Below are positions 2,295 through 34,361 of a DNA stretch of 35,090 nucleotides, piece by piece. Under the pieces are notes generated by a model. That model had not been told where the DNA came from, searched no databases, and worked only from the letters and a program-made list of their open reading frames with translations. Numbering within the stretch: the stretch's first letter is position 1; the number at the start of each line of letters is the position of its first letter. Source of the DNA: a virus (taxonomy: Duplodnaviria > Heunggongvirae > Uroviricota > Caudoviricetes); the IMG/VR virus record IMGVR_UViG_2671180963_000003; one strand, written 5' to 3'. The position numbers were made by a program, and so were the translations under genes.

Positions 2295-2395
2295 CAGTCG
2301 ATTCCTCACATGTGGATTAATAATTTCTTAAAAAGAGCATTTCGCTCTGAACACTTGTATTTATAAAATGATTTTCAGAAAACCCTGTAAAACCA

Positions 2396-2411
2396 CTGTA
2401 TATCCGATCAG
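2396..2411. promoter_or_regulatory. LexA (SOS) box-like site CTGT-N8-TCAG
   Basis: CTGTATATCCGATCAG; matches the CTGT-N8-ACAG consensus with one mismatch; abuts a candidate leftward promoter. Confidence 0.35.
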
Positions 2412-2480
2412 TGGGAGCACGAATTGCTAAAGAGAAGATTAATTATTAATCAATTCGTACAATATTCAACCGAAAAAGCA

Positions 2481-2496
2481 CTGTATATCTAACCAG
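2481..2496. promoter_or_regulatory. LexA (SOS) box-like site CTGT-N8-CCAG
   Basis: CTGTATATCTAACCAG; the first 12 nt are nearly identical to the site at 2396. Confidence 0.35.
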
Positions 2497-2498
2497 TG

Positions 2499-2514
2499 CT
2501 GTATGAATTAGCAG
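2499..2514. promoter_or_regulatory. LexA box-like site CTGT-N8-GCAG
   Basis: CTGTATGAATTAGCAG, immediately adjacent to the previous site. Confidence 0.25.
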
Positions 2515-2635
2515 TGAATCAGGAGATTTTCAGAAGTGAACAATCATTTCACACATGTATTTATAACGTGGAAATTCTTGCTTATCATCTATATGGGGAC
2601 TGTTTAGAAAATTTCAACCCCCACCAGTGAGAAAA

Positions 2636-2664
2636 AGTATAAAATAATCCTTGACAGTTGTCAA
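2636..2664 (-). promoter_or_regulatory. sigma70-like leftward promoter (TTGACA-17-TATACT)
   Basis: On the minus strand, TTGACA (2664..2659), a 17 nt spacer, TATACT (2641..2636); the -35 is one half of the palindrome TTGACAgtTGTCAA (2651..2664). Confidence 0.5.
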
Positions 2665-2859
2665 TACACTTGACCCAAGCGAGAAATGACTATCAAAATT
2701 TTTGTTTGAAAATGGTAGATCAGGATTATCAACCTTTATAACCTATTATAGCACGGAGACCTTTTGACAATTCTTTTTAAATCATTAACTTACGCCACTT
2801 TTTGGTGATTTTTTGATTAAATAATATACAAGAATTTTCTATCAAAATATTTGATGGGA

Positions 2860-3056
2860 ATTGCCCCTGAAATTCTGAATTTTTGCCCCCGAATAAAATC
2901 CCCAAGATTCTACTATCCCATTTTTGCCCCTGAAACCTACTATTTTTGCCCCTGAAATTCTGGGAAACAGTGATTTTGCCCCTCATTTTTGCCCCTGAAA
3001 TGCCAATAATTGCCCCTGAAAATCTAATTTTTGCCCCTGAAATTTGCCCCCGAAAA
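2860..3056 (+). repeat. array of about 9 direct repeats of TTGCCCCTGAAA (variants TTGCCCCCGAA) plus one inverted copy near 3100
   Basis: Copies start near 2860, 2883, 2924, 2946, 2977 (truncated), 2988, 3010, 3031 and 3045; GGGGCAAAA in inverted orientation at about 3100; an AT-rich segment precedes the array at 2800-2858. Confidence 0.8.
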
Positions 3057-3459
3057 GGATTGGTGAGAAAAACTCTTTATAAAACATTAAATTAGTGAGG
3101 GGCAAAAGCGGGTGATGCGGCGTACATAGATATTATATAACACATTCGCTACGCTCATGTGTAAAACTAAAAACAACAAATAACCAGAAAGATATTAGGA
3201 GGGCTTTAGCCCGACTGCGCGAAGCGCCAACCAATTGCTTCTAGTAACAACTAATTTAAACTAGATGATACTAGATGGTCTTAGAAGGAATTAACTAGTT
3301 TGCTCGCTCGCTTCGCTCACTCTCAAACGTCTGCGACGCCACTGCGTGGCATCGAGAATCACTTCTGAAAGGATTTTCTCGAAAGGGATTTTAAACTAGT
3401 TACTAACTGATTCTAGAAAGATAGTAATAATCACTTTAATGATCATGAAAGGTATTGGT

Positions 3460-3488
3460 ATCCCTTCGGGATTGCAACCTTCGGTTGC
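3460..3488 (+). other. two tandem short hairpins with CTTCG loops (possible RNA structure or weak terminators)
   Basis: ATCCcttcgGGAT and GCAACcttcgGTTGC in tandem, followed by a T-rich tract. Confidence 0.3.
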
Positions 3489-3686
3489 TAAATTGCTTCC
3501 TGATTATTATTTCTCCAAAAGAAAGATTCTTATATTCTAAAGATACTTCTTCGTTTTGACGATGATTTAATCAAAAATCATGAAGGAGGCGAAGCCGACT
3601 GAATCCAATCACCTTTCATAATAACAAGAATTTTCTCTTTATAAATAATATTAGATTGATTCACTTTCTTTTTAGAGGATACCACT

Positions 3687-5952: not shown

Positions 5953-6555
5953 TTATTTAGAGGACTTACATTTTATCGGAAAAAGTTCTCCATCGTCAAC
6001 CGACATAAAGAACTCTGCCTTAATCCCGTACTTCTTCAACCGTGAATAGTATGTACCCCGACTAATATCAACCTTGCGAAGCACTTCAAAGAACCCTTTA
6101 GGATCGTTGTAATAGTGGCTATAACGCACGTTAGCGAGTTCAACGAATAGTTCCCTTGTATCACCATAGCCTTTCTTGAAAGCCTCGTTACGATAGCGTG
6201 TAATTGCGTGATTCAATCTCTTCTGTTTCAACACTTCTCGGATCGGCTTCCACTGCAACCGATAGATAGGACCGTCATCAATGCGATAATAACGCTTGAT
6301 ATCAAAATCAAACCAATCTCGGACTCTCCGAAACTCTGTATGCGATGTTCTATGCTTCTTAAAGAAGTTGTGAACGTCTGTATAACCATTATCACGGTAA
6401 AATTCTATTAAAATCTCTTTCGCTTCCTCACGGCTAAAACCGGATGTTGTGTAATCAGTCTTTAAGTGCTTATGTTTTACTGGCAAACGATATTCATGAT
6501 CGGTACAAGACAAGGCTAATTCTAATTCATCTCTTTGTTGCTGATTAATTAGCAT
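5953..6555 (-). CDS. basic protein with HTH-like segments, function unknown
   Basis: 200 aa, AAGGGGG Shine-Dalgarno; C-terminal [16 protein letters not shown] resembles the HTH of the two small paralogs; antisense to the flanking Rha-like and terminase genes. Confidence 0.55.
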
Positions 6556-8622: not shown

Positions 8623-9117
8623 ATGAGTTTAGAACTAATTCCCTTAGTAATTCGTAAAGGCGAAAAAATCACGCTGGCGAATGAAGAGGGTGTGACAATT
8701 CAGGTAGGAAATAGTAAAGGTATCATTTATCAGGTTGATGATTCTCCGGCTAATCATGAGATTAAAACCTTAGATTTTGCCGAAGGTAAATATACCATCG
8801 TAATAACTTTGGAAGAAGAACTGGTATCAATGCAGGAATTAACTGTATTGCCAGTATTCGCCAAACAATCCAAAAAAGAATATCTGCGGGAAACTATCGC
8901 CTTAATCGAGCAAGTTATTTTCGCCCGTTTATCTGGGGACGAAGCCGCATTATCTCAAATGACCGTGAAAGGGAATACTTTCGCCTATGAGTCATTGGGT
9001 GTTCTCCAGGCTCTAAAAGTCGATTATGAACGTCAGTTATCAAAATTAATTCAAGCCGAACGACGTAAACAGGGAATTAGCCCGATTAAAAATATTAAAG
9101 TACGTCTTACGCGATAA
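8623..9117 (+). CDS. head-tail joining protein candidate (gpW-like C-terminal region with N-terminal extension)
   Basis: Lies between the terminase and portal genes as gpW does in lambda; the C-terminal segment NTFAYESLGVLQALKVDYERQL loosely resembles the gpW pattern from memory; AAGGGGTAA Shine-Dalgarno context. Confidence 0.4.
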   Translation: MSLELIPLVIRKGEKITLANEEGVTIQVGNSKGIIYQVDDSPANHEIKTLDFAEGKYTIVITLEEELVSMQELTVLPVFAKQSKKEYLRETIALIEQVIFARLSGDEAALSQMTVKGNTFAYESLGVLQALKVDYERQLSKLIQAERRKQGISPIKNIKVRLTR

Positions 9118-9127
9118 GGGGTAAATC

Positions 9128-10639
9128 ATGTTTAATCTTTTTCGACGCAATAAGGCGGTAGAGACTCCAGTTAAAACTAATCACCGCCAGCAACAACAAA
9201 AAATCTTTATCGACAAACAAGTAGAAAAATTCCAGAAAGATTTGTCTAAGCGTTCTTTGGGCTTGGTCGGTGATCGCATTGATGGATCGCTTCAACAAGA
9301 TACCATTACAGGAACCTTCAATAAGGCTCTCAAATCGAACGGTAAGCGCCTTTATGATCAGGGTCGTACTCTGGCCTTAAACACTTCCGTAGGCAGTCGC
9401 TACACGCAATACATAACCGATATGGTGGTAGGTACTGGCCTAGATCCGAAGCCGTCAGTTGTTAAATCAAACGGCAAACTTGATAGCGCACTGAATAAGC
9501 AGATCGAGAATGCTTTCTGGAAGTGGGCGCAGAATGCTAAACGCTTCTCTCGTAACGGTCGCTTTAACTTCCGTGAACTGCTGGTAATGGCTGAACGTGA
9601 GCGCGTTATGGGTGGTGAGTGCTTCATTGTTTTAACCAAAGAAAACAATGAGTTAAATGTTTCTATCCTGTCTGCTGATAAGTGCGACTGGACACTCAAC
9701 CGTGAAGTAAGCAAAGAACGCGCTATCTATCAAGGTGTGGAGTATGACGTGGACACAATGCGCCCTGTTGCATACTGGTTTCGTAAAGTCAATCTACTGA
9801 CTCAGACCTACACTGGTGATAACTATCGTGTCGATGCTTCGCAAGTATGCCATTATTATCAACCACTTGCGGCTGAATCTCTGCGTGGTGTGACTGACTT
9901 CCTACCAGTGATTAAGGATATCGCACATCAAGACGCATTCCGCGAAACTGCGATCATCCAGAAACGCATTGCAGCTAGCTCTATGGGCTTTATCGAACGT
10001 CCGAAAGATTCTGGTGACGATTTTGATACTGGTGAAGAGGATGAACAATATCAAGCGCCGGAAGTAGTACAGGATTTTGCACCGGGTACTATTCAGGAAT
10101 TGCCGGAAGGGGCAACGATCAAGAGCATCCAGGCGACGCAAAGCGGTGATGACTTCAATTCCTTTAACGATGCGATGTTTACTAGCGTATCAATGGGCTT
10201 AGGCGTGTTTAAACAGGGCTTGACTGGTGACACTAGCCAAATAAATTACTCATCAGCACGCTACGGCGAATTACTTCAACGCACACGCATTAAAGCACTG
10301 CAAAACAAATTAATTGAAACAGTGGTATTGCCAATTTTTGAAGCGTATCTACGCCATTATTCCGCGCGTGGTATTGTTCCGATTCGTATTACTGCAATTC
10401 CGCATATTATCGACAACACTACTATTATTCGTCCGCGTTTTGAATCCGTCGATCCTATTAAAGACGTAAACGCCGAGATTGCTTTAATTGATAAAGGACT
10501 TAAATCACGTACTGCCGTTATATTAGAACGTGGTGATGATCCTGAAAAAGTATTCTCAGAGATTCAAGCCGAAAAGAGCGCACTAAATATTATCGTTGAT
10601 GGCGAGGGTGAAGAAAAAAATTCCCCAGCCGATCCCTAA
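9128..10639 (+). CDS. portal protein (by position and size)
   Basis: 503 aa ORF immediately after the terminase/gpW-like genes and before the protease-capsid gene; AAGGGGTAA Shine-Dalgarno; no motif-level confirmation. Confidence 0.6.
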   Translation: MFNLFRRNKAVETPVKTNHRQQQQKIFIDKQVEKFQKDLSKRSLGLVGDRIDGSLQQDTITGTFNKALKSNGKRLYDQGRTLALNTSVGSRYTQYITDMVVGTGLDPKPSVVKSNGKLDSALNKQIENAFWKWAQNAKRFSRNGRFNFRELLVMAERERVMGGECFIVLTKENNELNVSILSADKCDWTLNREVSKERAIYQGVEYDVDTMRPVAYWFRKVNLLTQTYTGDNYRVDASQVCHYYQPLAAESLRGVTDFLPVIKDIAHQDAFRETAIIQKRIAASSMGFIERPKDSGDDFDTGEEDEQYQAPEVVQDFAPGTIQELPEGATIKSIQATQSGDDFNSFNDAMFTSVSMGLGVFKQGLTGDTSQINYSSARYGELLQRTRIKALQNKLIETVVLPIFEAYLRHYSARGIVPIRITAIPHIIDNTTIIRPRFESVDPIKDVNAEIALIDKGLKSRTAVILERGDDPEKVFSEIQAEKSALNIIVDGEGEEKNSPADP

Positions 10640-14495: not shown

Positions 14496-17400
14496 ATGCA
14501 GTCGATCCAATTTAAACGAACAAATGTTTCTGGCAAAAAACCAACGCCGGAACAATTACAGGTCGGTGAGGTAGCAATCAACCTTAAAGACCATGTTATT
14601 TTTACCAAAGACCGAGATCATGAAGTAGTTCAAATCTCTGTTTCTCCTGAAACTCACGCGGCACTAGAATCTAAAGTTGATGCTAACAAACAAGAACTGG
14701 ATAGTACAATTGCAGTAAATGACCGCAATATTCACGCTAAAGTAGATGAAATTAAACAAACTACTGATGCAACCATCGCAGCAAATCACGTAGAAATTAA
14801 CAATAAAGTTGATGTAATTAAACGCGAAACCGACGCGACAATCGATGCCAATAAAAATAAAGCTGCTTCCGACCTTGCTGGTGTTAAAGCTGAATTGTCG
14901 GATACTATCAACGCTAATAAAAATGCGGCTGCTGTAGCAACACAGGAACTGGACACCCGCATCAATAAAAAAGTTGATGATATTAAATCCCGTACCGATG
15001 CAACCATCGCAAGCAATGACAAAGCAATCAATGACAAGGTTGATTTGATTAAGGCCGAGACTGATCGGACTATCGCAGCAAATAAAGCCTATGCGGAAAA
15101 TCAGTTAACTGACACCTACAATAACCTTACTGGTGTGATTGCAGCCAATAAGCAAGAGGCAGCGGATAACGTCGCAGCATTAACCCGTGATGTTGAAGCC
15201 AAAAATTCAGCAATTCATAGCAAAGTTGACAATAACAAGTCTTACACCGATTCCGAACTTGCACGTTTAGAAAGCCGTATTGATGCAGCCGATGGATCTA
15301 GTGACGGTAAGTACATCAAAAAACACGTAAACACTTATACTGATGGTTATTTGCTGTCTAAGACCGCAAACTATTTTGATGATCCAGGTGCTCGTAATCT
15401 TGATTACTTTGGTGCATTCCGTACCAATGATCTAGCTGATCATATTGCAATGATCTTGCATGTTCCGCACCCATCCGGTGTTAATCATGCTCGTGGTTTT
15501 GAGTTCACTTATGGGTCTAATCCACATGCTACGGTAAGAACATACGGCTATGATGAATTGGGTCATTTGGCATATTCTCACCGCATGTATCATGAAGGTG
15601 ATAAACCTACTCCTGCCGAAATTGGCGCATATTCGAAAGCAGAAATTGACCGACTGTTCCAGAAGACGCTTAATTTTGGTATCGAGGGTGGTTGGTTTAA
15701 ACTAGGCACTTTGACAATGCCACAACAACACGGTCGCACCGCTAAGATTCGTTTGGTTGGTGGTAACGGTTATAACGTCGGACAGAATGGACAAGCCAAT
15801 GTTATTGAACTGGTGATCCGTTGCGGCAACAATAGCCCGAAAGGTGTTGTATTCAATGCTTATTATAGCATTTGGTATTACGAACAATATTTTTGCGCAA
15901 TTCCTACCGATGGCGATAATTACGATCTTTACGCTTACTACGGTGCACATACAGGATTTGTTTTAGCAGAATATCAAGTTTCGTCCGGTGGTGTTTCTTT
16001 AAACCTGTTGGATACTCCTGAATATCTGGGTGGTGAAAAACCTGTTGCAGATGAAATTTTTGATGCTCTTAACATTTCATCATTCAATAACTTTAGCAAC
16101 CGTGGAACGTTAAATTTTGGTGGAAACCATCAAGGCCAATATGACATTGAGCATTTGAACGAACAACAAACAAATGCTAAGAAAAAGTTGCGTCGCTTCC
16201 GTAGTTCCGCACCCGCTACTATCTGGCATGAAACTGTAGATGATCAGAATTATCGTCTTGCTACTGGATACGATGATGTAAACCAACAATTATTGCTGTC
16301 GGCTGCATCCGGTTTGCATATTCGTAGAATGACCATTGATGGCGGTTTAGGTGGAAACTCAGCAATTGATTTTCGTCGTGGTCCAAATGAATCATGTCAT
16401 TTAAACTTCTTTGATTATCGCACTGGTACAGATGTTCGTAATGGCTGGTTTGGCTTCGGTGATGGTCAGACCAAAGATTTTATTTGGTGGAACGACAACG
16501 GTCAAAACTCTATAAACCTGATTGAAGACGGTGAATTACATATTACTGGCGGTAGAGGCCAGAAAATTGTAATGAATAGCGAAGTGGCATTATCTGAAAA
16601 TGCTCGTTTGGCTGTCAAAGGTGGTAACTATGGTTTAATCCTTCGTAATGATGGTTCTAGCTTCCATATTCTTACTACCGATTTAAAAGATTCCTTTGGG
16701 ACGTGGAACACTCGTAGACCATTTAGTTATGATTTCGCCGAAGGTGGATTAGATCTAGGTGGCACAGCTACCGCACGCTGTTTACATCTGGGAATTGATG
16801 GTAGCACCCGCATCGAAGATAATATGGTGTTTAGATCAGGGTCTCGTCAGTCAATGGACTATATTGAATTAATCCATTGGGGTAACAGTAATACAGGACG
16901 CAATAACGTTTTGAGTATGCGAGATTCCAAAGGTTTCTTGGCTGAATTTGAACGCGTGGGGGGTACTAACGGCGTTAAAACCAGATTCTTTGGCGAAACA
17001 TTCACTGATGGTACATTATACCTAAATCAGATGAATAATAGCTCTGAACGATTCTCTATTAATAATTGGGGAAATTCAGAAGTTGGTCGCGCGGCAGTAA
17101 TGGAAGTTGGCGATTCCAAAGGTTATCACTTCTATACTGAACGTAGGACAGATGACACCGTTTTATTTGATGTATCTGGTGCTTTGACCGTGCATGGACC
17201 TAACGGAATAACCGTCAAAAACTCAACTGGTGCACGCCATATCTGGTTTAGAGATGATAGCGATACGGAAAAGGCTGTTATCTGGGCTACAGATGAGGGT
17301 ATTTTACATATTCGCAATAACCACGGTGGACAATTTACACATCACTTCCAGGGCGCGATGATTAAACTGGAAGGGCGTGTTCCTTATGCCGCAGATCAAG

Positions 17401-18020
17401 GACTTATCCGTGGTGAGGTTTCTGGTGGTGCATATGTTGCATGGAGAGACCGACCTGCTGGTTTGTTGGTTGACTGTCAACAAAGCGTTGATAGTGCTCA
17501 TGCTATTTGGAAAGCGGTTGATTGGGGGCGTAACTACATCGCTGCTATGGACGTTCATTGTCCCGGTGATAGTAATAATACTGCGGCAGCGGTTCTTCAT
17601 GTTCAGGGTGCTGATTATCAATTCCATGCAAGTGGAGAATTTCATGCCACTGGTAACGGAAACTTTAACGATGTTTATATTCGTTCCGATCGTCGTCTGA
17701 AAATTAATGTTGAAGATTACGAAGAAAATGCGGTGGATAAGGTAAATAAACTCAAAGTTAAAACCTACGATAAAGTTAAATCTCTTAATGACCGAGAAGT
17801 TATAGGTCATGAGATTGGTATTATCGCACAGGATTTACAAGAGGTATTACCGGAAGCTGTTAAAACCGCAAAAATTGGTGGTTTTGATAACCCAGAAGAA
17901 ATTTTAACAATTTCAAACTCCGCAGTGAACGCGCTTTTAATTAAAGCGGTCCAAGAAATGAGCGAAGAAAATAAACTTCTTCGTGAACGTCTTGCTGCAA
18001 TTGAAGCTAAATTAGGGTAA
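14496..18020 (+). CDS. tail fibre with C-terminal intramolecular chaperone (S74-like) domain
   Basis: 1174 aa. N-terminus MQSIQFKRTNVSGKKPTPEQLQVGEVAINLKDHVIFTKD resembles the T4 gp37-type fibre N-terminus from memory; repeated KVDxIKxxTDATIxAN units; WGNSEVGRAAVMEVGDSKGYHFYTERR resembles a T-even fibre domain; C-terminal DRRLKINVEDYEE...IAQDLQEVLPEAV...coiled coil resembles the self-cleaving chaperone of endosialidase/T5 pb1-type fibres. Confidence 0.8.
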   Translation: MQSIQFKRTNVSGKKPTPEQLQVGEVAINLKDHVIFTKDRDHEVVQISVSPETHAALESKVDANKQELDSTIAVNDRNIHAKVDEIKQTTDATIAANHVEINNKVDVIKRETDATIDANKNKAASDLAGVKAELSDTINANKNAAAVATQELDTRINKKVDDIKSRTDATIASNDKAINDKVDLIKAETDRTIAANKAYAENQLTDTYNNLTGVIAANKQEAADNVAALTRDVEAKNSAIHSKVDNNKSYTDSELARLESRIDAADGSSDGKYIKKHVNTYTDGYLLSKTANYFDDPGARNLDYFGAFRTNDLADHIAMILHVPHPSGVNHARGFEFTYGSNPHATVRTYGYDELGHLAYSHRMYHEGDKPTPAEIGAYSKAEIDRLFQKTLNFGIEGGWFKLGTLTMPQQHGRTAKIRLVGGNGYNVGQNGQANVIELVIRCGNNSPKGVVFNAYYSIWYYEQYFCAIPTDGDNYDLYAYYGAHTGFVLAEYQVSSGGVSLNLLDTPEYLGGEKPVADEIFDALNISSFNNFSNRGTLNFGGNHQGQYDIEHLNEQQTNAKKKLRRFRSSAPATIWHETVDDQNYRLATGYDDVNQQLLLSAASGLHIRRMTIDGGLGGNSAIDFRRGPNESCHLNFFDYRTGTDVRNGWFGFGDGQTKDFIWWNDNGQNSINLIEDGELHITGGRGQKIVMNSEVALSENARLAVKGGNYGLILRNDGSSFHILTTDLKDSFGTWNTRRPFSYDFAEGGLDLGGTATARCLHLGIDGSTRIEDNMVFRSGSRQSMDYIELIHWGNSNTGRNNVLSMRDSKGFLAEFERVGGTNGVKTRFFGETFTDGTLYLNQMNNSSERFSINNWGNSEVGRAAVMEVGDSKGYHFYTERRTDDTVLFDVSGALTVHGPNGITVKNSTGARHIWFRDDSDTEKAVIWATDEGILHIRNNHGGQFTHHFQGAMIKLEGRVPYAADQGLIRGEVSGGAYVAWRDRPAGLLVDCQQSVDSAHAIWKAVDWGRNYIAAMDVHCPGDSNNTAAAVLHVQGADYQFHASGEFHATGNGNFNDVYIRSDRRLKINVEDYEENAVDKVNKLKVKTYDKVKSLNDREVIGHEIGIIAQDLQEVLPEAVKTAKIGGFDNPEEILTISNSAVNALLIKAVQEMSEENKLLRERLAAIEAKLG
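14676..15080 (+). repeat. imperfect tandem ~66-69 bp repeats within the fibre gene
   Basis: At least four consecutive units encoding (H/N/K/D)KVD(E/V/D/L)IK(Q/R/S/A)(T/E)TD(A/R)TI(A/D)(A/S)N; a coding repeat, not a separate element. Confidence 0.6.
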
Positions 18021-28199: not shown

Positions 28200-28218
28200 A
28201 ATTTAATTCTAATAATTA

Positions 28219-28257
28219 ATCCCGCTTAATTCTTTTGAGTTAAGCGGGATTATTTTT
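28219..28257 (+). terminator. strong rho-independent terminator after the central fibre gene
   Basis: 11 bp stem ATCCCGCTTAA/TTAAGCGGGAT, 10 nt loop, T-rich tail. Confidence 0.7.
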
Positions 28258-28304
28258 ATCTAAATAATTTTGCCATTAAACTATATAAAAATATCGGGGG
28301 CGTA

Positions 28305-28583
28305 ATGACTGAAATTATATATGGCGGTATCGGTGTTATCGCCTTAATTTGCGGTGGATTATGGAGACTTCACCGAAATCAATTAGCAACTGAAAATAGA
28401 TTGTCGAAATTGGAATCCAGCGACGCATTGTTAAACCAGAAGTTTGAGACGATGCAGAATAACCATACTCAGATTGCTGAACGTGTTTACCAAATGGAAC
28501 AAACACTACACGGTATAGAGAAGAAAGTGGTTGCGATGGACGCTAAGTTTGACCAAGTTCTCGACATACTCAAACAAAAATAA
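28305..28583 (+). CDS. membrane-anchored coiled-coil protein (spanin-, holin- or exclusion-like candidate)
   Basis: 92 aa; N-terminal hydrophobic helix IIYGGIGVIALICGGLW followed by a heptad-like region; CGGGGG Shine-Dalgarno. Confidence 0.45.
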   Translation: MTEIIYGGIGVIALICGGLWRLHRNQLATENRLSKLESSDALLNQKFETMQNNHTQIAERVYQMEQTLHGIEKKVVAMDAKFDQVLDILKQK

Positions 28584-28603
28584 TAATAAAAGGGGTGAAT
28601 ATA

Positions 28604-28773
28604 TGAAGAATAAACTTAAGAAATATTTTGGTTATCTCTTGATTGTCGCCCTCACTTATAACGTAGCTATTAGACCTCTGCTAACGTCCTTTGGGCTTGA
28701 ACTCCCGGCTATGACCGTGGATGAACAATTGCTAAGGACACTGGCGGGGGTCTTTTCGTTATTAGGGGGCTAA
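28604..28773 (+). CDS. small membrane protein (holin-like candidate)
   Basis: Start moved to ATG 28604 (AAAGGGGTGA Shine-Dalgarno); 56 aa with two hydrophobic stretches. Confidence 0.4.
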
Positions 28774-28774
28774 C

Positions 28775-29458
28775 ATGGCAACCAGTACCAATAAACGAAA
28801 CGCTCTAAGGACAAAGAAAGCGTTACGCCAATGGACTGATAAAGCAACCGATACATTCGAAAGGGCGATAGGTGAAGGGGCGATCTTTGCTGCTCGTGCA
28901 CTCCAGAAGAAGATTAACAAGAATGTTGATAGACCTACTCGATGGACTCAGCAAGCTGTAGGTAATACCAACTACAAGAACCGATCAGGGACGAGACACC
29001 AAATCTTCATCAAGGGCGCAAGGGATAAGGACAAGAAGATCGGCAGTCAGGATGACTATCTGAAACACTATTTCGATGGGGGAAAAATCAATAAGCTAGT
29101 TCCAATCGCCAACGGTAAGGTCTTAGACGCCCACGGGAACATTAAGGCCATCAAAGGCGGTAAGATGATGCGTAACCTCGAAAACGGCAACTTCATCAAG
29201 GTAGAGAACAAGGAAGGGACTTTTATCATGAAGAAGTACAAGCCTAAGAAATCCCGAACCAAACGCGCTAGGAATGGATCGGCGGTGGCAAAACGTCGCT
29301 TAGAGAAACGCATACAGAAACAGAGCAAGCGAATTGTTGCCGTTAAATCGGATAAAATTTCTACTCGTTATTCGACGCTAGGATCGTGGGAAAGCAACGA
29401 AGCAATGATGCTTGAAAACATCAATAAGCACATTAAATCGCGCATGAAATACGTTTAA
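28775..29458 (+). CDS. basic protein, function unknown
   Basis: 227 aa, K/R-rich; AGGGGG Shine-Dalgarno overlapping the upstream stop. Confidence 0.5.
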   Translation: MATSTNKRNALRTKKALRQWTDKATDTFERAIGEGAIFAARALQKKINKNVDRPTRWTQQAVGNTNYKNRSGTRHQIFIKGARDKDKKIGSQDDYLKHYFDGGKINKLVPIANGKVLDAHGNIKAIKGGKMMRNLENGNFIKVENKEGTFIMKKYKPKKSRTKRARNGSAVAKRRLEKRIQKQSKRIVAVKSDKISTRYSTLGSWESNEAMMLENINKHIKSRMKYV

Positions 29459-29496
29459 TCCATAAATACCCTCATAGAAACTTATGGGGGTATAAC

Positions 29497-29844
29497 ATGG
29501 CTAAAAATATTTTCACTGAATTTCCTACTTATCCGGTCGATCAGCTTTCCGGTATTTTTATTAATGGCATTAGCCCAGAATCTATGACACATGATTTTGA
29601 GGCGAAGAGAGTTAAACATAAACAATATAAAGAATGTATCCGCGATCATGAAAAAGGGACCGTGTTTTGTGTCGCTACATTGGCTAAACGTCCTAAGTAT
29701 CGTTTTCGTGTCGGACAAGAAGTTGATGTGGTTAATCCTTATAGCTTTAACTGTCTGGGCGATGCACGCGCGGTGTGTGTAGGCACTGCTCCTTATTATA
29801 TCAAGGGTATGCGCTTTATTGGTTATATCTTCGAAATGATCTAA
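29497..29844 (+). CDS. hypothetical protein
   Basis: 115 aa ORF with TGGGGG Shine-Dalgarno. Confidence 0.5.
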   Translation: MAKNIFTEFPTYPVDQLSGIFINGISPESMTHDFEAKRVKHKQYKECIRDHEKGTVFCVATLAKRPKYRFRVGQEVDVVNPYSFNCLGDARAVCVGTAPYYIKGMRFIGYIFEMI

Positions 29845-29853
29845 GGGGGTAAT

Positions 29854-30207
29854 ATGTTAAGTAAGCATTTTTCTCGCAAGGAATTTAAATGTAAATGCGG
29901 AAAATGTGATTATGATACAATCGACGCTGAATTACTGGTGATTCTTGAGGATGTACGAGAGCACTTCGGTAAACCAGTGATTATTAACAGTGGCAACCGT
30001 TGCCCGACTCATAACAAGAATGTTGGCGGTGCAACCAATAGCTATCATGTTCGAGGCCGTGCGGCTGACATTGTTATCAAGGGTGTCTCGCCTGATATTG
30101 TTCATGCTTATCTTGATGGGAAATATCCTACTCAATACGGCTTAGGAAAATATAAAACCTTTACGCATATTGATTCCAGATCAAAAAAATCACGGTGGAA
30201 TGGATAA
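29854..30207 (+). CDS. endolysin, Peptidase_M15-type zinc peptidase (D-Ala-D-Ala carboxypeptidase-like fold)
   Basis: 117 aa; motifs SGNRCPTHNKNVGGATNSYHVRGRAADI and FTHID match the His/Asp zinc-binding pattern of this family; AAGGGGGTAA Shine-Dalgarno. Confidence 0.7.
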   Translation: MLSKHFSRKEFKCKCGKCDYDTIDAELLVILEDVREHFGKPVIINSGNRCPTHNKNVGGATNSYHVRGRAADIVIKGVSPDIVHAYLDGKYPTQYGLGKYKTFTHIDSRSKKSRWNG

Positions 30208-30640
30208 AACAAAAGCGCCTCTGGTGGGCGCTTTTTTGTTAGAATATGCTGGCGACGTTAGCTATATTTCTGACCATTTTTTCATTATAGACAAATATAC
30301 CGCAGATGATAAAGTGGTATTCGACGAAGTTGATCCGTCTCTGGTTGAAGCAATGAAAGAACCTGAGATCGTCATTGAAGAAACAAAAGAAGAATCTCCA
30401 GCAGTTGAACCAGTGGTCGAAGAAGTTAAGTCAGATGTTGAAGAAGCACCGGAAGTTAAAGTAGAATCTCCGGTAGCCAACATTTTCTCTGACGAAGCAG
30501 AACATCGTTCCCCAGCACATGACACTGATTCATTTTGCGATCTTACTGGTTTCCGTCCGACCATTTGTTTGATCGGTGGCGGTCGTGGCTACTACTCCTG
30601 CCCGTGGTCTTCAACCATTACAACAAATTTTTCTCAATAA
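30200..30640 (+). CDS. acidic Pro/Glu/Val-rich ORF of doubtful status
   Basis: Long open frame with a plausible acidic composition, but no convincing start site and the terminator hairpin lies inside its 5' end. Confidence 0.25.
   Translation: MDKTKAPLVGAFLLEYAGDVSYISDHFFIIDKYTADDKVVFDEVDPSLVEAMKEPEIVIEETKEESPAVEPVVEEVKSDVEEAPEVKVESPVANIFSDEAEHRSPAHDTDSFCDLTGFRPTICLIGGGRGYYSCPWSSTITTNFSQ
30214..30237 (+). terminator. rho-independent terminator after the endolysin gene
   Basis: AGCGCC-tctggtg-GGCGCT followed by TTTTTT. Confidence 0.65.
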
Positions 30641-31748: not shown

Positions 31749-33428
31749 TTAAATTCCAAATTCCTGTAATGGACCTGGTATTTCCTCTTCTGGTTTCCAG
31801 TTCTTATCTGTCAGCATGTCTAAACATGGATGCAGAACAAGCCCGTTGCTCTCCAGAATCTGCCTATCATTGATAGTTTTCAAATCAATGAATATCCGGC
31901 CTTTCCTCGTTCCTCTTGAATTTTCTATTACAACTCTCTGGGTCTTTCCATCGATGTATTCCAGTACAAACAAGTTTTTGTTTCTGTCAATCCTGCTACA
32001 CCCGATCCGCTTTAGAGCTTGCTTAATCTTAAACCGGACCTTTAGTCGTTCCTCGTTATAAACATCTTCTAAATCAAATTCTGCGAGCTTCTCCCAGCCT
32101 TGAGAGTCCACAGAATACATTTCCTCTTCTGCCATCTTGATCTGATTGTAGAGTGTTTCACGCTCGCTATTGAGGGTAGTAATCTGATCGGCTAGCTCCT
32201 TCGTTGCTCCTGTCATAGCAGAAAGGGCAATCAGGTTATCAATCTTGCGTGATATTTCATCAACCTGTACTTTCAAAGCCGGAACCGGATTAGCCTTGTC
32301 CTCAGCAATCCAGATTTTATCAGCCAGCAATTGCAATACAGCTTTCTCTAATTGATCACCTCGAAAACTCCAGTTTGGATGCTCGCAATCAAGTCTACGT
32401 GAACGGGTCGCATCACATGTATAACGATACTGGTCAGAACGTTTGTTCGTTCCCTTCACTTTAACCATAGCGCAACCGCAATGATCACATTTCAATAGGC
32501 CAATACCACTAAGCAGGGGGATCGGTTTAACTTCTTCCTTCTCTCCAAAGTTCCATGCTCTAGCACCAATATTTTTCTTAAGGTGATAGAACGTAGCATC
32601 ATCAATAACACGAGGGTAATAATCCTTTAACTCATAGTTAACGCCATCTACAGAGACTTCCTTGATACCAATCAAAGCGCGGGTATGGAACAACCTTTCA
32701 ACCATTGCCCGTGACCATTTTGAATGCTTCTTGTTGCTTACTGCTGGTGGCGGTGTATATGTCTCGTTAAGGTGATCCAGTATTTCGGCGGTTGAACGTC
32801 CATTCTTCCGTAATTCCACAATCTCCTGAACAACAGGGAAGTACACCGGATGAGGCAACACATAACCGGAAGTGGTATCAGTCCACCACATATTCTTTCC
32901 AACTTCCTCGATAGCCACTGCCGGATTTTGTGGATTTTCTTGATGAGCTTTAATCTTAATCAATGCGCTTGAGTTAGTACGATTGCGCTTAGTCTGGCTT
33001 TCCTCATTACCACGGATGAATAAAAGGATGGAGAACATCAGGTCCATCGGGTTAGCGGTAACAGTATCCAGCGAGTAGATCTTGTTATCCATGCCAGTAA
33101 CAATGGTTATTCCCCTACGGATGATTGAAAGGAATAACTCCTGCGCACTGACAATATCGGCACGGGATAAGCGGTCCAAGTTTTCAATGAATAGCCAGCT
33201 ACCAACAGGAACGGATCTACCAATTGCATCAAGGAAACGAGATAGCGCCCCTGTTTTAGAGTTAGCACCCTTAAACGCAGATACACCCAGATCCTGATAA
33301 TCATTTACCAGTTCAAGGTCATACTTTGTCGCAACCTCTCTCGCCATCCTGATTTGTCGTTCATAACTCGAACCATCATTCTGACGCATAGACGAGAAGC
33401 GAATATACGAATACAGTTTAGTTTTCAT
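31749..33428 (-). CDS. large serine recombinase (integrase-like)
   Basis: N-terminal YSYIRFSSMRQ...ERQ and DRLSR resemble the serine recombinase catalytic motifs; Cys cluster CDHCGCAM...C..C; C-terminal coiled coil; 559 aa from ATG 33428 (the track began at an upstream TTG). Confidence 0.8.
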   Translation of the reverse strand: MKTKLYSYIRFSSMRQNDGSSYERQIRMAREVATKYDLELVNDYQDLGVSAFKGANSKTGALSRFLDAIGRSVPVGSWLFIENLDRLSRADIVSAQELFLSIIRRGITIVTGMDNKIYSLDTVTANPMDLMFSILLFIRGNEESQTKRNRTNSSALIKIKAHQENPQNPAVAIEEVGKNMWWTDTTSGYVLPHPVYFPVVQEIVELRKNGRSTAEILDHLNETYTPPPAVSNKKHSKWSRAMVERLFHTRALIGIKEVSVDGVNYELKDYYPRVIDDATFYHLKKNIGARAWNFGEKEEVKPIPLLSGIGLLKCDHCGCAMVKVKGTNKRSDQYRYTCDATRSRRLDCEHPNWSFRGDQLEKAVLQLLADKIWIAEDKANPVPALKVQVDEISRKIDNLIALSAMTGATKELADQITTLNSERETLYNQIKMAEEEMYSVDSQGWEKLAEFDLEDVYNEERLKVRFKIKQALKRIGCSRIDRNKNLFVLEYIDGKTQRVVIENSRGTRKGRIFIDLKTINDRQILESNGLVLHPCLDMLTDKNWKPEEEIPGPLQEFGI

Positions 33429-33440
33429 ACCATTTCCAAA

Positions 33441-33477
33441 CAAAAACGCCCCTACCGCGTATTATAACGATAGGGGC
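33441..33477 (-). terminator. rho-independent terminator (minus strand) upstream of the recombinase
   Basis: GCCCCTA(c)CG ... CG(a)TAGGGGC hairpin with a U-run on the minus strand; the loop contains TTATAAT. Confidence 0.5.
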
Positions 33478-33493: not shown

Positions 33494-33739
33494 TTAATAT
33501 TTCTTTCCAGTTAGTTTTGCATCACGTTTATTAATATCCTCGATATGACTCCATACACACGCAGTAATAAAGTCGTCATCGTCACCAACTCCGGCAACCT
33601 GTGCTAATTCAGTACACAGTTGATTTAAAGAAGGTGCAACGGCAGCACGCTTGACACTATCACCCTGTACATATTGTTCGGCATTTGCAGCACCAACCAA
33701 ACCCAGAGCAAGAACGATACCAGCGATAATCTTTTTCAT
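33494..33739 (-). CDS. small secreted protein with Sec signal peptide
   Basis: 81 aa; MKKIIAGIVLALGLVGAANA with an AXA cleavage motif; AGAGGA Shine-Dalgarno; acidic DDDD patch. Confidence 0.5.
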   Translation of the reverse strand: MKKIIAGIVLALGLVGAANAEQYVQGDSVKRAAVAPSLNQLCTELAQVAGVGDDDDFITACVWSHIEDINKRDAKLTGKKY

Positions 33740-33768
33740 AATAGAATCCTCTTTGTTATTTGAATTAA

Positions 33769-34110
33769 TTAGTCTTTGAAGTCGATGGTCACGTTACCTT
33801 TAAGGGCAAGTTCCATTAAACAACTGCGCTCGTCCTTCATGCTCTTACACAATTTCATCCCGTAAACAACGAGATTATCTTTCTCTTTCCAATATTTTTG
33901 TTTATCTGCATAAACCTCGCTATATTCACTGTCTTTGAGTGAGAGAGCATTTTCTAACTGGCTAATCTCCTGATTCAGATCCTTAATCTCGGCCTTATTT
34001 GACCGGATAGTCTCTTGATGTTGAGTATCGGAATAGTCATACCCACAAACAAATCCACCGATGCCACCAACACACACAGAAACAATAATTGCGTAGATAG
34101 TCTTTTTCAT
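33769..34110 (-). CDS. membrane-anchored or lipoprotein-like coiled-coil protein
   Basis: 113 aa; N-terminal hydrophobic segment with Cys residues, then a heptad-like region; its 5' context (AAAGAGGATTCAATTATGAAAAAG) is nearly identical to that of the upstream gene. Confidence 0.5.
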   Translation of the reverse strand: MKKTIYAIIVSVCVGGIGGFVCGYDYSDTQHQETIRSNKAEIKDLNQEISQLENALSLKDSEYSEVYADKQKYWKEKDNLVVYGMKLCKSMKDERSCLMELALKGNVTIDFKD

Positions 34111-34151
34111 AATTGAATCCTCTTTGAATGAATTACGATATATTTATATCG

Positions 34152-34277
34152 TTAAAAATTGATGCTAATTACCAGACCAAACACAACCGCACCAATCAAA
34201 TCAATCCAGTTAATACACAATCCGCTATATTCTTTCTTGAATGTCTTGGATGAAATGCCATCATGAAATTGTTTCAT
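34152..34277 (-). CDS. hydrophobic micro-protein (41 aa)
   Basis: MKQFHDGISSKTFKKEYSGLCINWIDLIGAVVFGLVISINF; GGGGTGA Shine-Dalgarno; absent from the ORF track because of its size. Confidence 0.3.
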   Translation of the reverse strand: MKQFHDGISSKTFKKEYSGLCINWIDLIGAVVFGLVISINF

Positions 34278-34280
34278 TGC

Positions 34281-34361
34281 TCACCCCATACTAACGACAA
34301 TATAAGAAAGACTAATCATAGTTGTGAGACTACCTCCCACGAATGAGATAAAAGCTAACAT
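34281..34361 (-). CDS. hydrophobic micro-peptide (26 aa)
   Basis: MLAFISFVGGSLTTMISLSYIVVSMG; GGAGAA Shine-Dalgarno 6 nt upstream; lies directly after a minus-strand terminator. Confidence 0.25.
   Translation of the reverse strand: MLAFISFVGGSLTTMISLSYIVVSMG

Follow-up and report, generated by a model that had tools for sequence, protein, structure and literature searches.

A block of five genes closes the tail operon in a 35,090-bp stretch of DNA from a tailed virus (IMG/VR record IMGVR_UViG_2671180963_000003; the whole stretch is called the window below), and it begins with two small membrane proteins, orf92 and orf56, and ends with a soluble endolysin of the M15 type. We propose that this block is a non-canonical late operon in which orf56 and/or orf92 provide or time the membrane lesion that the M15 endolysin requires, with orf92 as a releasin- or XhlA-like protein and with no spanin encoded, a reading to which we assign an even chance of being correct. 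By this mechanism, the soluble endolysin would accumulate in the cytoplasm until a lesion formed, most likely by means of orf92 and orf56 at the head of the unit. orf56 would be the hole-forming holin, and orf92, on the membrane's cytoplasmic side, would serve as a co-holin, a timer or a release factor, along the lines of Mu gp25 releasin or PBSX XhlA. The two intervening genes, orf227 and orf115, probably encode virion or assembly proteins that share the transcript, and rupture of the outer membrane would fall to mechanical stress or to an unrecognised factor. The holin and regulator assignments, like the membrane topologies, are predictions from sequence. The layout would then be a modest, testable variation on ordinary phage lysis.

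The five genes (28305-30207) lie between an intrinsic terminator that follows the J-like tail-tip gene (28217-28252) and a closing terminator hairpin (30211-30237). All five were intact and full length in 24 of 24 IMG/VR relatives, which are viral contigs of ~35 kb; the first terminator was present with four or fewer mismatches in all 24 and the second, at the same tolerance, in 23. The open reading frames (ORFs) of the block carry RefSeq annotation, the same gene order was seen as homologues in five other genera, and across genera the proteins of the gene set share 20-69% identity with their lengths preserved; the ORFs are thus genuine genes, not products of chance. Because two terminators bracket all five genes, the block reads as one operon, most likely a single late transcription unit with which the tail operon ends. 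The original prediction made from this sequence had described the lysis functions as dispersed, which was an overstatement given that all of the genes fall within one terminator-bounded unit. By their assigned families, lysis genes are interleaved with virion-type genes in this block, and the late operon of phage P2 mixes the two kinds likewise.

We found no sigma-70-like promoter between the upstream terminator and orf92. A hairpin with a T-run also occupies the junction between the tail-tip gene and the orf92 homologue in Providencia, Edwardsiella, and Proteus, with stem sequences unrelated to that of the window. The motif TTATCTAAATAATTTTGCCA, located directly after the terminator at 28256-28275, is recognisable in Edwardsiella and Providencia despite these unrelated stems, and in both it follows the hairpin in a shared TTATCTAAATAA..TTGCC-like form. 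A search for a second copy, as the idea of a repeated promoter would suggest, found none in the window, where the motif occurs once; it may be a dedicated regulatory entry site. In relatives with a second genome arrangement, described below, the gap between the tail-tip gene and the set is just 34-43 nucleotides and contains a short hairpin. The lack of a sigma-70 promoter and the short gap together suggest that the block is expressed late, by read-through or from a dedicated entry, and not in the lysogen, and this presumed expression pattern weighs against a role in exclusion.

The endolysin matched Pfam Peptidase_M15_3 with an E-value of 1.1e-27 (96.7 bits; gathering cut-off 23.2) and the PHROG family phrog_894 'endolysin' with 1.9e-45, and it gave a weak NCBIfam match to the L,D-endopeptidase MepK. 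The zinc motif SxHxxGxAxD...H can be read in its sequence, with H65, D72, and H105 present. As the original prediction had stated, the protein has neither an N-terminal signal nor a membrane anchor: its N-terminus contains no hydrophobic segment, it has no signal-arrest-release (SAR) domain, and both of its neighbours, orf115 and orf146, are soluble-looking proteins with no transmembrane domain (TMD). By established lysis biology, an endolysin that lacks an export signal needs a holin-type membrane lesion to reach the wall. Re-annotation in all frames found no conserved hidden ORF adjoining the endolysin, in agreement with the earlier claim that no holin stands beside it. Two hydrophobic-looking ORFs in alternative frames, one inside orf115 (29591-29782) and one inside the endolysin gene (29990-30145), were rejected as unconserved; in the two relatives checked, Providencia had no counterpart of either, and Edwardsiella had only a non-hydrophobic +1-frame ORF inside its endolysin gene. 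An insert of ~670 bp that follows the endolysin in some E. coli relatives was considered as a spanin pair and proved to be a minus-strand gene for a 197-residue endonuclease-like protein. The pair ~1.1 kb upstream had been described as the only small membrane proteins on the plus strand, and for the late operon this held: orf92 and orf56 are the sole membrane proteins encoded on its plus strand. That they also share a terminator-bounded unit with the endolysin counts in favour of a holin function.

The description of orf92 as a membrane helix followed by a coiled coil was likewise confirmed. The protein has an acidic N-terminal end of three residues, a Gly-rich TMD at residues ~4-20 with a Kyte-Doolittle hydropathy of 2.0, an RLHR junction, and a coiled-coil-like tail of ~70 residues. 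Flanking charges are -1 before the TMD and +2 after it; in the family, the N-terminal flank is acidic or neutral, and the C-terminal flank is +1 to +2 in six of seven homologues. From these charges, the positive-inside rule predicts an N-out/C-in orientation with the coiled coil in the cytoplasm. A motif, ExRxxxxE, is nearly invariant in the family. When 11 family members were compared with PHROGs, seven matched the Rz-like spanin family phrog_739 (best E-value 1.3e-4), three matched phrog_1296 'holin' (best 2e-7), and two matched phrog_937 'hemolysin', whereas the window protein itself matched an Rz-like PHROG weakly (0.036). We count these family matches towards a function in lysis. Matches of the family to phrog_937, phrog_1625, and Pfam XhlA were weak and non-significant, and a profile search of a representative library returned mostly coiled-coil noise.

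orf56 consists of a basic N-terminal end (+4), one TMD at residues ~8-28, an acidic loop, and a short Gly-rich hydrophobic C-terminal end, and it contains no cysteine. N20, P25, and P35 are invariant in its family, with N20 and P25 lying within the TMD, and eight of 13 members matched phrog_2024, a family with no assigned function (best 1.1e-6). The two hydrophobic stretches of the original prediction are both there; the second, at residues ~46-56, has too few residues to cross a bilayer. Topology prediction, which had been named as a check, was run and placed orf92 N-out/C-in and orf56 N-in, with the single TMD of orf56 only moderately hydrophobic.

Direct searches with orf92 and orf56 found homologues confined to E. 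coli, Salmonella, and Providencia, and tblastn searches of orf92, orf56, and orf94, a distant ORF considered below, against 50,697 phage records gave no match. More broadly, the first four genes of the block recur as a set encoding a protein with a TMD and a coiled coil (89-153 residues), a small transmembrane protein (54-66 residues), a basic protein (178-239 residues), and a protein of ~100-115 residues. In 15 of 15 distinct relatives examined, from ~9 genera, the membrane pair comes directly 3' of the tail-tip gene, except that two small genes intervene in the Serratia type. In what we call arrangement 1, the endolysin gene is located 3' of the four-gene set, directly so except in phage DCP80, where one minus-strand gene is inserted. 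The enzyme is a Peptidase_M15_3 protein in the window, Providencia, Edwardsiella, Proteus, and a divergent E. coli lineage, and an unrelated T4-lysozyme-like enzyme (Phage_lysozyme) in the Serratia-type loci and DCP80. This non-orthologous replacement of the endolysin behind an unchanged four-gene set argues that the unit functions in lysis. In E. coli MS 115-1, which has the second arrangement, the lysozyme gene lies at the opposite end of the prophage, next to the integrase and to distal-tail genes that are inverted, with no adjoining membrane ORF; thus, no alternative holin appears there, and a pair of the orf92/orf56 type is still the sole candidate.

Several observations weigh against a lysis function for the pair. 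In arrangement 2, found in Enterobacter, Pantoea, Kluyvera, and some E. coli, the set is flanked by the tail-tip gene on one side and by the tail-chaperone and tape-measure genes on the other, and in a Klebsiella locus no endolysin follows the set, which runs into the integrase region; in these genomes the endolysin is elsewhere or was not seen. The placement in arrangement 2 makes the link of the set with the tail tip closer than that with the endolysin, and in the window itself orf227 and orf115 separate the membrane pair from the enzyme. The TMD of orf56 is marginal, with a best 17-residue window of 1.63 and R24 inside it, and the protein lacks the charged cytoplasmic C-terminal tail typical of holins. 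It had no match in Pfam, NCBIfam, or PADLOC and none to a curated holin family in PHROGs; similarly, orf92 matched no curated holin family in Pfam, NCBIfam, or PHROGs and nothing in PADLOC. The link between orf92 and DUF2730, the family of Mu releasin, is also weak. Alignment of 11 orf92-family members with five DUF2730 proteins by hhalign gave a probability of 63.5% and an E-value of 6.8e-5 for a local match of 31 columns, which take in the last part of the TMD, the junction, and the first helix. PF10805 (gathering score 24.9 bits) gave no listed match for orf92 and 10 relatives, only coiled-coil noise, with sub-threshold DUF2730 matches in two relatives, one of them a 'faint' match in a Serratia homologue and the other a match of 17.6 bits in P0146.

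Arrangement 2 keeps alive a tail-linked or exclusion role for the membrane pair. The pair might serve the tail tip, either as a superinfection-exclusion factor or a block to DNA entry that pairs with the J-like protein, or as a membrane-side assembly factor, and the true holin would then be elsewhere or missing; we regard this as unlikely, but as carrying real weight. In every relative the pair directly follows the tail-tip gene or, for the Serratia type, stands two small genes beyond it, even where the endolysin is distant or absent, the next gene, orf227, looks like a tail component, neither membrane protein has a holin-family match, and exclusion genes such as cor, llp, and lom often follow receptor-binding genes. 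Such a role fits poorly, however, with the late co-transcription implied by the missing sigma-70 promoter before orf92 and the 34-43-nucleotide gap of arrangement 2, or with the exchange of endolysin types behind an unchanged set, and it would leave the soluble endolysin with no holin candidate in the late operon. PADLOC gave no match for orf92, orf56, orf227, or orf115, a result that leaves room for an undescribed exclusion function. Exclusion, which the original prediction had named as another possible role, thus gained no support from either the promoter search or PADLOC, yet it may still be the role of the pair. A holin might instead act from far away. orf94, an isolated ORF at the left end of the prophage, has the size and the three predicted TMDs of a class I holin and is present at ~90-95% nucleotide identity in E. 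coli relatives, but it lies outside the late operon and convergent with early minus-strand genes, its C-terminal tail is very short, and it had no match in Pfam, PHROGs, NCBIfam, PADLOC, or phage records. Its position is typical of lysogenic-conversion morons, and we find it improbable that orf94 is a class-I-like holin working so far from the endolysin. The ORF may be such a moron or serve in exclusion, or it may be a remote holin candidate.

The failure to find a spanin or a recognisable holin, together with the existence of relatives visibly degraded by insertion sequences, would also fit a prophage that is lysis-defective or cryptic, with no working holin or spanin and a cassette that is a relic. 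We consider this decidedly improbable in view of the five intact genes in all 24 viral contigs of ~35 kb, the conservation of the set across genera at preserved lengths, and the full head, tail, and integrase gene set of the window. It is very improbable, to a degree that borders on exclusion, that orf92 is an i-spanin and orf56 its outer-membrane partner. Although the TMD and coiled coil of orf92 resemble Rz and its family has the weak Rz-like PHROG matches given above, the flank charges of orf92 favour N-out, orf56 has neither a cysteine nor a lipobox, and the window contains no lipoprotein ORF. An Edwardsiella locus (L033), moreover, has genuine Rz/Rz1-like genes besides homologues of both proteins.

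Lipobox scans of the window in all six frames, with a strict and with a relaxed pattern, found no credible lipoprotein ORF, only out-of-frame ORFs within other genes. A 27-residue mini-ORF with a lipobox (SIGC; 6228-6311, minus strand) inside a 200-residue early gene was rejected as a chance occurrence, being too short for an o-spanin and having no ribosome-binding site. No unimolecular spanin of the T1 gp11 type was found in the window, which has no lipobox ORF. In the Edwardsiella locus, a convergent gene pair directly after the endolysin encodes a 108-residue protein with a TMD and a coiled coil and an 83-residue lipoprotein, and the pair matched phrog_739 (2.9e-14), phrog_812 (1.4e-20), and Pfam Phage_T4_Spanin. 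None of the window proteins showed pairwise similarity to these Edwardsiella spanins. The lack of a lipoprotein ORF and the separate spanins of Edwardsiella therefore indicate that orf92 and orf56 are not a spanin set. The suggestion that the pair forms a holin/spanin set accordingly lost its spanin half, and its holin half is the best available, if unproven, assignment. The window phage appears to be without a recognisable spanin; among 677 phages of Gram-negative hosts, Kongari et al. reported 91 in which no spanin was found (PMC6139136).

Two minus-strand genes beyond the integrase, encoding a 113-residue protein with a TMD and a coiled coil and an 81-residue protein with a Sec signal, were also tried as spanins and rejected: they gave a weak phrog_739 match (0.0024), had no lipobox, and showed no similarity to the Edwardsiella spanins. 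The 113-residue protein also had a weak match (5e-4) to a PADLOC DRT-accessory family, and its gene is absent from the copy in a close relative (PigCaeca_2). Both genes belong to a variable accessory block (33494-34361, minus strand) that also contains two tiny hydrophobic ORFs.

Among known lysis systems, the closest counterpart of orf92 in architecture is Mu releasin gp25, a DUF2730 protein of 99 residues with an N-out/C-in topology, ~4 residues in the periplasm, and a basic pair at the junction (PMC9239132). DUF2730 genes lie within five genes of an endolysin, which may be of the SAR or the cytoplasmic type, and are reported only in Mu-like phages (PMC9239132). orf92 and Mu gp25 are alike in length (~92-99 residues), in having three or four residues before a single N-terminal TMD, in the helical cytoplasmic tail of ~70 residues, in the basic junction (RLHR in orf92, MRR in gp25), and in a local motif (GG.LW..HR...TENRLSKLE in orf92, GGAVWAMRR..STERVERLE in Mu). 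Both genes lie no more than five genes from an endolysin and count as late, in the case of orf92 by its presumed expression. The releasin-like architecture, together with the local profile similarity and the sub-threshold matches of relatives to DUF2730, counts in favour of the proposed reading. Unlike the Mu arrangement, however, the window endolysin is soluble and not of the SAR type, the orf92 gene lies upstream rather than downstream of the endolysin, and orf92 belongs to a siphophage that is not transposable and has a serine integrase and a lambda-type terminase; moreover, orf92 has no Pfam DUF2730 match, and the hhalign probability is just 63% over 31 columns. It is possible, but rather doubtful, that orf92 is a releasin-type (DUF2730-like) factor outside the transposable phages, that it forms a new two-component holin with orf56, and that lysis proceeds with no spanin by an unrecognised outer-membrane route.

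The PBSX and SPbeta cassettes (xhlA-xhlB-xlyA; bhlA/bhlB-blyA) follow tail-fibre genes and encode, in order, a single-TMD coiled-coil protein, a small holin-like protein, and an endolysin. The window block resembles them in position and in the order of gene types, a likeness with which the weak family matches to phrog_937, phrog_1625, and Pfam XhlA agree; it differs in its Gram-negative host and in the two unrelated soluble genes that precede the endolysin, and the TMD of XhlA is at the opposite end of the protein from that of orf92. The S-R-Rz/Rz1 genes of lambda and the T4 set share with the window a soluble endolysin that depends on a membrane lesion, and the Edwardsiella relative has a T4-family spanin pair adjoining the same endolysin. 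In contrast to the lambda and T4 sets, the window has no adjoining holin and no spanin, and its cassette ends the tail operon instead of preceding the terminase gene. A further parallel is Lcc6 of the Shewanella phage LambdaSo, a 65-residue single-TMD protein with a cytoplasmic tail that is strictly required for lysis at the holin step. Like each member of the window pair, Lcc6 is a small transmembrane protein, and its gene lies away from those of the holin and the endolysin; unlike the window, LambdaSo has a pinholin, a SAR endolysin, and nested spanins, and the likeness is one of description, with no sequence relation evident. By analogy, this precedent for a remote small transmembrane lysis protein can be counted in favour of a holin function for the pair.

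If orf92 and orf56 do trigger lysis, they would represent new families of holins or holin accessories in a host that is genetically tractable, and a releasin-like architecture would extend beyond Mu-like phages to a soluble endolysin. A temperate E. coli phage with no spanin would be a convenient model for the question raised by spanin-less phages (PMC6139136). For annotation, none of the four conserved 'hypothetical' genes that follow the tail tip should carry a spanin label, and the lysis genes of this phage family are to be expected interleaved with virion genes.

The two genes between the membrane pair and the endolysin were characterised by family and by model (Table 1 lists all features). 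orf227 matched phrog_1924 'minor tail protein' at 1e-3. Its AlphaFold2 (AF2) model had a predicted local distance difference test score (pLDDT) of 72.5, and a Foldseek search of BFVD with this model gave a best E-value of 2e-5 at a TM-score of ~0.4, with named matches mostly to 'HK97-gp10, putative tail-component'. No Pfam match was found, nor any match in the PDB by sequence or by model, and a profile scan of genome contigs with the orf227 family returned none. The family has 48 members across Enterobacterales, every one annotated as hypothetical, in a range that includes Serratia, Enterobacter, Citrobacter, Klebsiella, Kluyvera, Pantoea, Edwardsiella, and Proteus. orf227 probably serves the virion or its assembly rather than lysis. 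Homologues of orf115 share 31-61% identity; the protein had no match in Pfam, PHROG, NCBIfam, PADLOC, or the PDB, and its single-sequence AF2 model was unusable (pLDDT 30).

Table 1. Coordinates of the features discussed. Positions are those of the window except for the last four rows, which give positions in the named loci of relatives.
Feature	Position	Strand	Remarks
orf92	28305-28583	plus	92-aa inner-membrane protein; candidate holin partner or regulator, releasin-like or XhlA-like
orf56	28603-28773	plus	56-aa small membrane protein; most holin-like candidate
orf227	28775-29458	plus	basic protein weakly similar to HK97 gp10-like tail/neck components
orf115	29497-29844	plus	soluble protein; always between the orf227 homologue and the endolysin position
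Peptidase_M15_3 endolysin	29854-30207	plus	117 aa, soluble (cytoplasmic); Pfam PF08291, phrog_894
orf146	30200-30640	plus	matches a T4-type 'inhibitor of prohead protease' PHROG
Intrinsic terminator 3' of the J-like tail-tip gene	28217-28252	plus	16-pair stem and T-run; folding energy -27 kcal/mol
Conserved motif	28256-28275		TTATCTAAATAATTTTGCC, directly 3' of the tail-tip terminator
Closing terminator hairpin	30211-30237		GCGCC-TCTGGTG-GGCGC between an A-run and a T-run
orf94	95-379	plus	94-aa isolated ORF with three predicted TMDs; prophage left end, next to the attachment site
Large serine recombinase (integrase)	31749-33443	minus	
81-aa Sec-signal protein gene	33494-33739	minus	
113-aa TMD and coiled-coil protein gene	33769-34110	minus	
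Homing-endonuclease insert, L003	13197-13664		
Homing-endonuclease insert, L028	5320-5817		
Homing-endonuclease insert, L032	6365-6847		
Homing-endonuclease insert, L043	6371-6853		

The window is a complete genome of a temperate siphophage, with a lambda-type terminase, portal, capsid-protease fusion, tube, tape measure, and a J-like tail-tip protein of 1,258 residues among its head and tail genes. Near-identical DNA was found in ~55-63 of 5,426 complete E. coli genomes (~1%), in one of which the prophage interrupts ycdX. Arrangement 2 is represented by L036 (15035-24673) with L046 (13118-17289) and by L035, L042, L043, L044, and L028/L030. The order in these loci is tube, DUF6950, tail tip, four-gene set, tail chaperones and tape measure, attachment site, integrase, inverted hub and distal-tail genes, and lysozyme, a conserved arrangement that permutes blocks of the tail module around the attachment site. 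In arrangement-2 relatives and in DCP80, a homing-endonuclease gene of the Endonuclease VII/HNH type lies as an insert exactly between the gene for the TMD and coiled-coil protein and that for the small transmembrane protein. DCP80 (L003, PQ671644.1, Escherichia phage) is a 141-kb record classified in the Straboviridae that contains a siphovirus-type tail-tip gene, the four-gene set, and a lysozyme gene. It is the only one of the 50,697 phage records to carry the gene set and may be a chimeric assembly or a remarkable mosaic.

Downstream of the endolysin, the start of orf146 in RefSeq-style annotation overlaps the stop codon of the endolysin gene, and the reading frame of orf146 runs through the terminator hairpin. 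In ETEC1718, homology to orf146 starts only at '..ADDKVVFDEV', behind the 197-residue minus-strand insert, and the N-terminus of the window protein therefore looks like a fusion scar. The side tail-fibre gene of the window (14496-18020) has 77-92% nucleotide identity to the distal long-tail-fibre (gp37) genes of T-even phages, and one relative (L045) has UvsY- and UvsW-like genes at 8643-10448; together with the PHROG match of orf146, these are T4-like mosaic pieces in a temperate siphophage. In the early region, ~1.4 kb of the window (2310-3686) contains no ORF of at least 70 residues on either strand; it may accommodate an origin, regulatory sites, or a non-coding RNA.

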